NCBI RefSeq assembly: GCF_003334815.1
Contig: NZ_QOWO01000079.1
DNA length: 3,892 nt
Reading direction: 5' to 3' (one strand)
From: Escherichia coli
Lineage (GTDB): Bacteria > Pseudomonadota > Gammaproteobacteria > Enterobacterales > Enterobacteriaceae
Under the pieces are notes generated by a model. It searched no databases, had not been told where the DNA came from, and worked only from the letters and a program-made list of their open reading frames with translations. Of this stretch, positions 2,730 to 3,758 are shown one piece after another; the stretch's first letter is position 1; each line of letters begins with the position of its first letter. The translations under genes and the position numbers were made by a program.

Positions 2730-3758
2730 AGGCGCTGGTTGCAAAACTGCAGCGCATGCAGTTCGGTAAAAGCTCAGAAAAACTTCGCGCAAAAACCGAA
2801 CGACAGATACAGGAAGCACAGGAGCGAATCAGCGCACTTCAGGAAGAAATGGCGGAAACGCTGGGTGAGCAATATGACCCGGCACTGCCATCCGCCCTGC
2901 GCCAGTCTTCAGCCCGTAAACCGTTACCGGCCTCACTTCCCCGTGAAACCCGGGTCATCCGGCCGGAAGAGGAATGCTGTCCGGCCTGTGGTGGTGAACT
3001 CAGTCCACTGGGATGTGATGTGTCAGAGCAACTGGAGCTTATCAGCAGCGCCTTTAAGGTTATCGAAACACAACGTCCGAAACTGGCCTGTTGCCGTTGT
3101 GACCATATCGTGCAGGCGCCGGTGCCTTCAAAACCCATTGTACGCAGCTATGCCGGAGCGGGGCTTCTGGCCCATGTTGTCACCGGGAAATATGCAGACC
3201 ATCTGCCGTTATACCGCCAGTCAGAAATATACCGTCGTCAGGGCGTGGAGCTGAGTCGTGCCACGCTGGGGCGCTGAACTGCTGGAGCCACTGTATGACG
3301 TCCTGCGCCAGTATGTGCTGATGCCCGGTAAAGTCCATGCCGATGATATCCCCGTCCCGGTCCAGGAGCCGGGCAGCGGTAAAACCCGGACAGCCCGGCT
3401 GTGGGTCTACGTCCGTGATGACCGTAACGCCGGTTCACAGATGCCTGCGGCGGTCTGGTTCGCGTACAGCCCGGACCGGAAAGGCATCCATCCACAAAAT
3501 CACCTGGCCGGTTACAGCGGAGTGCTTCAGGCCGATGCTTACGGTGGCTACCGGGCGTTATACGAATCCGGCAGAATAACGGAAGCCGCGTGTATGGCCC
3601 ATGCCCGGAGAAAAATCCACGATGTGCATGCAAGAGCGCCAACCGATATCACCACGGAAGCCCTGCAGCGTATCGGTGAACTGTATGCCATCGAGGCAGA
3701 AGTCCGGGGATGTTCAGCAGAACAGCGTCTGGCAGCAAGAAAAGCCAGAGCTGCGTGA
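2588..3758 (+). pseudogene. tnpC: IS66-family transposase TnpC, disrupted: frame break near 3275 and 3' truncation at 3755
   Basis: The N-terminal part (2588-3277) has a coiled-coil region and a CxxC...CxxC zinc-finger motif (CPAC...CCRC). The central part continues in another frame (3258-3758; [24 protein letters not shown]...LQADAYGGY...). The frame ends at TGA 3756-3758, the first bases of the IS3-family repeat. The C-terminal region carrying the conserved glutamate is absent (recalled family feature). Confidence 0.85.

Follow-up and report, generated by a model that had tools for sequence, protein, structure and literature searches.

A lineage-restricted 17-nt deletion splits tnpC in a degraded IS66-family insertion sequence on an IncI1-type plasmid backbone

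An apparent change of reading frame within the tnpC gene of an IS66-family element could have resulted from decay of the gene, from an error of sequencing or assembly, or from a site at which ribosomes shift frame. The window in which this question arose, a stretch of 3,892 bases analysed at its full length, belongs to the backbone of an IncI1-type conjugative plasmid and carries, in degraded form, an ISCro1-type insertion sequence of the IS66 family with the genes tnpA, tnpB and tnpC. The initial annotation had located a frame break near position 3275 of this window, had attributed it to either a 1-nt insertion or a deletion of 3n+2 nt, and had read it as decay.

Three-frame translation and the open reading frame (ORF) listing showed that the tnpC frame (frame 2) ends with ...SRATLGR, in which the final R is encoded by CGC at 3272-3274 and is followed directly by TGA at 3275-3277. 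Homology was picked up again in frame 3 as ELLEPLY, starting from GAA at 3276-3278, with T3275 as a lone base between the two parts, as the initial annotation had described. The parts of the gene on either side of the break are listed below.

2588-3274, plus strand: 5' fragment of tnpC, codons 1-229, matching LZ_Tnp_IS66, zf-IS66 and positions 1-43 of DDE_Tnp_IS66
3275-3277, plus strand: premature TGA, placed in the tnpC frame by the deletion described below
3276-3755, plus strand: middle fragment of tnpC in the next frame, equivalent to codons 236-395 of intact TnpC, matching positions 52-205 of DDE_Tnp_IS66

The upstream 229 aa matched positions 5-126 of the NCBIfam profile NF033517 (IS66 family transposase) with an E value of 8.9e-41 and a score of 140.2 bits, and the downstream 160 aa matched positions 134-279 of the same profile (E value of 2.3e-45; 155.3 bits). 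The Pfam model DDE_Tnp_IS66 was divided between the two pieces in the same order. As both fragments matched consecutive portions of the family profile, the frame break was not due to chance, and the two fragments are consecutive parts of one protein split over two frames. The break detected near 3275 was, hence, real. Two minus-strand ORFs, at 3180-3338 and 3238-3642, also cover this site and were treated as antisense noise in a well-supported coding region. No structured RNA was detected at the frame-break site by Rfam analysis, the sok RNA at 799-956 being the only match in the window.

The size of the lesion was determined by DNA alignment with the nearest relative used as a reference, the E. 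coli plasmid CP024481 (E. coli 2011C-4315). Window positions 138-3755 exhibited no substitutions and two indels relative to this plasmid, namely, an additional G in tnpB (position 2548) and a loss of exactly 17 nt (GCTGGACTGGTGCCGTT) at 3272/3273 in tnpC. As 17 nt equals 3 × 5 + 2, the 3n+2 deletion put forward in the initial annotation was upheld and the 1-nt insertion was ruled out by the alignment. The junction left by this deletion was as follows.

3273-3276, plus strand: deletion junction with a GCTG microhomology; the breakpoint may fall at any point from 3272/3273 to 3276/3277

Restoration of the 17 nt produced 395 codons without a stop, collinear with the intact 523-aa ISCro1-type TnpC. 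The upstream fragment corresponded to residues 1-229 of WP_000381321.1, with 224 of 229 residues identical, and the downstream fragment corresponded to residues 236-395, with identity at all 160 of 160 residues. The residues lost from TnpC were 230-235 (WTGAVA), which fall inside DDE_Tnp_IS66 (residues 186-472 of the intact protein) and near the start of this catalytic-domain model. The tnpC gene of CP024481 is itself annotated as 'frameshifted', and a lesion common to both copies was ruled out: CP024481 has its own private deletion of 1 nt (A) at position 3877/3878 of its locus, near codon 460.

In the undeleted CP024481 sequence, the lost stretch starts with GCTGGACTG, and GCTGAACTG is found exactly 17 nt further on, forming a direct repeat with 8 of 9 bases identical. 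The offset between the repeats is thus the same as the length of the deletion. Repeat-bounded loss with retained microhomology is the pattern classically left by slipped-strand mispairing. Replication slippage between these near-identical 9-nt direct repeats, whose starts are 17 nt apart, is the most likely mechanism for the deletion and would have resulted in the loss of one repeat copy together with the spacer.

The distribution of the junction was examined in sequence databases. In megablast searches, a 60-base probe over the deleted junction matched 1 of 72,556 plasmids, NZ_LT985321.1 (plasmid RCS85_pI of strain ECOR 3), and no match was detected among 20,395 complete E. coli genome records. 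The exact junction 40-mer was present in none of the species-representative genomes or metagenome contigs. The undeleted 77-mer from CP024481, in contrast, was present in 130 plasmids and in 120 E. coli records. A match to tnpC was found in 2779 E. coli records, with at least 80% of the gene covered in 2396 of the 2779, and the 30 best matches listed all spanned 16 to 17 nt more than the query. The undeleted form was therefore widespread and the junction was restricted to one lineage, indicating that a continuous frame is the norm for the family and that the break is private. A single reference element, that of NZ_LT985321.1, shared the junction, a continuous frame being the norm in the other copies. 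The PLSDB gene table for NZ_LT985321.1, which is incomplete by design, contains tnpA and no TnpB or TnpC protein; this fits treatment of tnpB and tnpC as pseudogenes in the source record. A literature search yielded no reports on the plasmid accession or on a frameshift in IS66 tnpC.

The ECOR 3 plasmid was the one other carrier of the junction. In the window, the IS66-family element adjoins the hok/sok and trbA genes of the IncI1 plasmid, and the features on this side of the window are as follows.

138-662, minus strand: 5' part of trbA
799-956: sok RNA, Rfam match with a score of 131.7 bits
951-1106: hok, a 51-aa Hok-family ORF
1178-1429, minus strand: hypothetical gene of 83 aa

The type I toxin-antitoxin locus hok/sok is complete (799-1106), and a 94-aa ORF at 815-1099, which overlaps the hok ORF, could be the mok reading frame. 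The ECOR 3 plasmid was 100% identical to the window over positions 138-3892 and had both the deletion junction and the insertion point of an IS3-family element, described below, in common with it. To the left of position 138, trbA continues intact in the ECOR 3 plasmid; in the window, positions 1-137 are instead occupied by an inverted IS3-family end. This end is the exact reverse complement of 3756-3892, and both of these IS3-family ends face inward. The left IS/trbA junction at 137/138 was found in no PLSDB plasmid. In the source of the window, trbA may be truncated by a second IS copy in inverted orientation, in the manner of a composite transposon; alternatively, the window may represent a draft contig whose ends are repeat overlaps.

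These comparisons were relevant to the suggestion that the break is a sequencing or assembly artefact and that the actual plasmid retains the 17 nt, with the frame unbroken at this position. Such an artefact would be in keeping with the presence of only indels (the additional G and the missing 17 nt) relative to CP024481, since indel-only differences with no substitutions over 3.6 kb are a pattern that sequencing error can also give, and with a junction shared with one database record only. However, the precise loss of 17 nt between the copies of an 8/9 direct repeat is typical of slippage and not of a homopolymer-type read error. Furthermore, the same junction was detected in a separately deposited complete plasmid; its left flank, with an intact trbA in NZ_LT985321.1 and an IS end at 137/138 in the window, indicated that the two sequences are not the same assembly and that the source of the window differs from NZ_LT985321.1, although this one other record may not be fully independent of the window's source. 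Overall, an artefact was considered improbable, and a genuine deletion in the plasmid lineage was preferred.

The junction might alternatively be a recoding site, with a ribosomal +1 shift at CGC-U-GAA fusing ...ATLGR to ELLEPLY and generating a TnpC protein lacking six residues. The in-frame UGA occurs after a G-rich run, UGGGG at 3267-3271, and has a superficial similarity to the site in prfB. At a prfB-type site, the P-site codon re-pairs after the +1 shift, with a Shine-Dalgarno-like element ∼3 nt upstream. At the tnpC junction, however, the P-site codon CGC would have to pair with GCU after a +1 shift, which it cannot do, and the G-run abuts the CGC codon and does not lie 3 nt upstream as in prfB. 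The site, moreover, arose through a deletion private to one lineage and shows no conservation, the homologues having a continuous frame, such that site conservation, re-pairing and Shine-Dalgarno spacing of the prfB type were all absent. A shifted product would also still stop at 3756-3758, upstream of the conserved acidic residue completing the DDE triad; this residue is putatively assigned to the ...NNIAEN... segment near residue 447, which we take to lie beyond the cut made by the IS3-family element. Recoding was hence regarded as extremely improbable. The restriction of the junction to one plasmid lineage, a second lesion in tnpC and the additional G in tnpB instead agreed with decay, as had been proposed initially, and not with programmed frameshifting.

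These further lesions were examined in the context of the whole IS66-family element, the remaining features of which are given below.

1485-1509, plus strand: left terminal inverted repeat of the IS66-family element (GTAAGCGCATCATTTAAACCGTCTT), which pairs with positions 4077-4101 of the CP024481 locus, just past the tnpC stop
1570-2220, plus strand: tnpA, intact, encoding the IS66 accessory protein (NF038385, 283.8 bits versus a cutoff of 150)
2220-2729, plus strand: tnpB with an extra G (CGC to CGGC at 2548); the reference tnpB has 348 nt
3756-3892, plus strand: IS3-family terminal inverted-repeat end inside tnpC; the matching element is annotated as IS1203 family

The element has the tnpA-tnpB-tnpC order of the IS66 family, with the tnpB start located on the tnpA stop; the tnpA stop codon and the tnpB ATG overlap by 1 nt (TGATG at 2220). 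The products of both tnpA and tnpB scored above the NCBIfam cutoffs. The left end begins with GTAAGCG, as expected for an IS66 inverted repeat, and the right repeat is outside the window, beyond the IS3-family insertion. No 8-bp target duplication was detected around the IS66 element, the flanks in CP024481 being ...CAGTTTTTT and GCTGAAAT... (locus positions 1387-1398 and 4102-4113), and this fits an old or rearranged insertion. In a comparison of CP024481 with an intact chromosomal copy (locus L003), the local alignment did not start until locus position 1817, within tnpA, suggesting that the 5' end of this gene is mosaic or divergent.

Three lesions were present in the lineage of the window: the additional G in tnpB, the 17-nt deletion in tnpC and an IS3-family insertion in tnpC. 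The G at 2548 replaces the last 5 residues of TnpB (AGIRI) and lengthens the ORF, from 115 to 169 codons and to position 2729, such that it runs across the tnpC start at 2588; the TnpB profile was still fully matched, at residues 10-99. The initial annotation had likened the direction of the tnpC shift to that of the tnpB lesion, and both the loss of 17 nt and the gain of a G do need a +1 correction. The IS3-family insertion at 3755/3756 cuts tnpC at codon 395, so that codons 396-523 are no longer contiguous with the preceding part of the gene, and contributes the TGA at 3756-3758. In the ECOR 3 plasmid, the rest of tnpC is found beyond the IS3-family element, which is flanked by a 3-bp target duplication (GCG), indicating a simple insertion. 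In the segment corresponding to window positions 138-3755, comparison of the plasmids of ECOR 3 and a 2011 clinical isolate detected no substitutions over 3.6 kb and yet three structural lesions, such that indels and IS insertions outnumbered point substitutions by three to none.

The tnpC fragments exhibited the homology expected of the IS66 TnpC family (NF033517; PF13007, PF13005, PF03050 and PF13817). A single ORF of ∼520 aa scoring above the curated cutoff was absent, with a stop after 229 codons and each fragment below the 180-bit cutoff of NF033517, and tnpC was therefore classified as a pseudogene of the family and not as a functional member. An intact reference TnpC covers positions 1-283 of DDE_Tnp_IS66 together with the C-terminal element; of the complete domain (DDE_Tnp_IS66 1-284 plus DDE_Tnp_IS66_C), only positions 1-43 and 52-205 were found in the window. 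The three lesions thus indicated that this copy would produce no transposase and would be a non-autonomous relic, and we infer from its sequence that it cannot supply transposase.

A GGAG motif is present 7 nt 5' of GTG 3258 (window 3247-3260), which opens a downstream ORF of 166 aa; this spacing is probably due to chance. The downstream DDE fragment might in principle be translated from this GTG and would stop at TGA 3756-3758, lacking model positions 206-284 and the C-terminal element. With respect to the upstream fragment, the LZ_Tnp_IS66 and zf-IS66 domains are complete, and in other IS families, truncated transposases are known to act as inhibitors. A 229-aa N-terminal product comprising the leucine zipper and zinc finger could, on this basis, have been kept as a trans regulator or inhibitor of related IS66 copies. 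The presence of this allele in a single lineage, however, provides no sign of selection, and the extension of tnpB over the tnpC start may disturb translation of the fragment, making such a role highly improbable. There is a similarly slight chance that the UGA/G-run site made by the deletion allows low-level +1 shifting or that expression of the 229-aa fragment dampens the transposition of related IS66 elements in the same cell.

Overall, these analyses indicated that the frame break very probably marks the site of a spontaneous, slippage-mediated loss of 17 nt from tnpC and that this plasmid copy of IS66 has decayed to a non-autonomous relic. Slippage would have eliminated codons 230-235 and shifted the frame, such that translation would end at the new TGA after 229 residues. 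The resulting product would keep the leucine zipper and zinc finger but only 43 positions of the catalytic-domain model and, with the IS3-family insertion at codon 395 and the +1 G in tnpB, the copy would be left unable to make transposase. This decay appears to have been neutral. For annotation, tnpC should be described as a pseudogene with a 17-nt deletion and an IS interruption. The junction provides a highly specific marker for the lineage of ECOR 3-type IncI1 plasmids, and nothing new was learned about IS66 gene expression.

Comparison with known copies places this element among examples of a familiar process. The intact ISCro1-type copy of E. coli CB7286 (TnpC WP_000381321.1) has the same gene order and the same tnpA/tnpB overlap as the window, and shares a left inverted repeat starting with GTAAGCG. 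Unlike the CB7286 copy, the window has a tnpC gene that lacks 17 nt, is frame shifted after codon 229 and contains an IS3-family element at codon 395, and a tnpB gene with an additional G near its end. CP024481 has an IS66 copy at the same trbA-hok site with shared flanking genes and DNA that is identical over 138-3755 apart from the two indels, and this copy retains the 17 nt and a normal tnpB. The private 1-nt deletion of CP024481 was absent from the ECOR 3 plasmid (compared at position 8124 of the ECOR 3 locus), indicating that the common ancestor had an intact tnpC. As each lineage has its own disabling mutations, IS66 copies at the trbA-hok site appear to decay independently. Both the insertion sequence and its plasmid site are thus known, and the copy in the window is a pseudogenised one; nothing in it departs from known biology, and it matters little except as a textbook case of a mobile-element copy decaying once fixed in a plasmid backbone.
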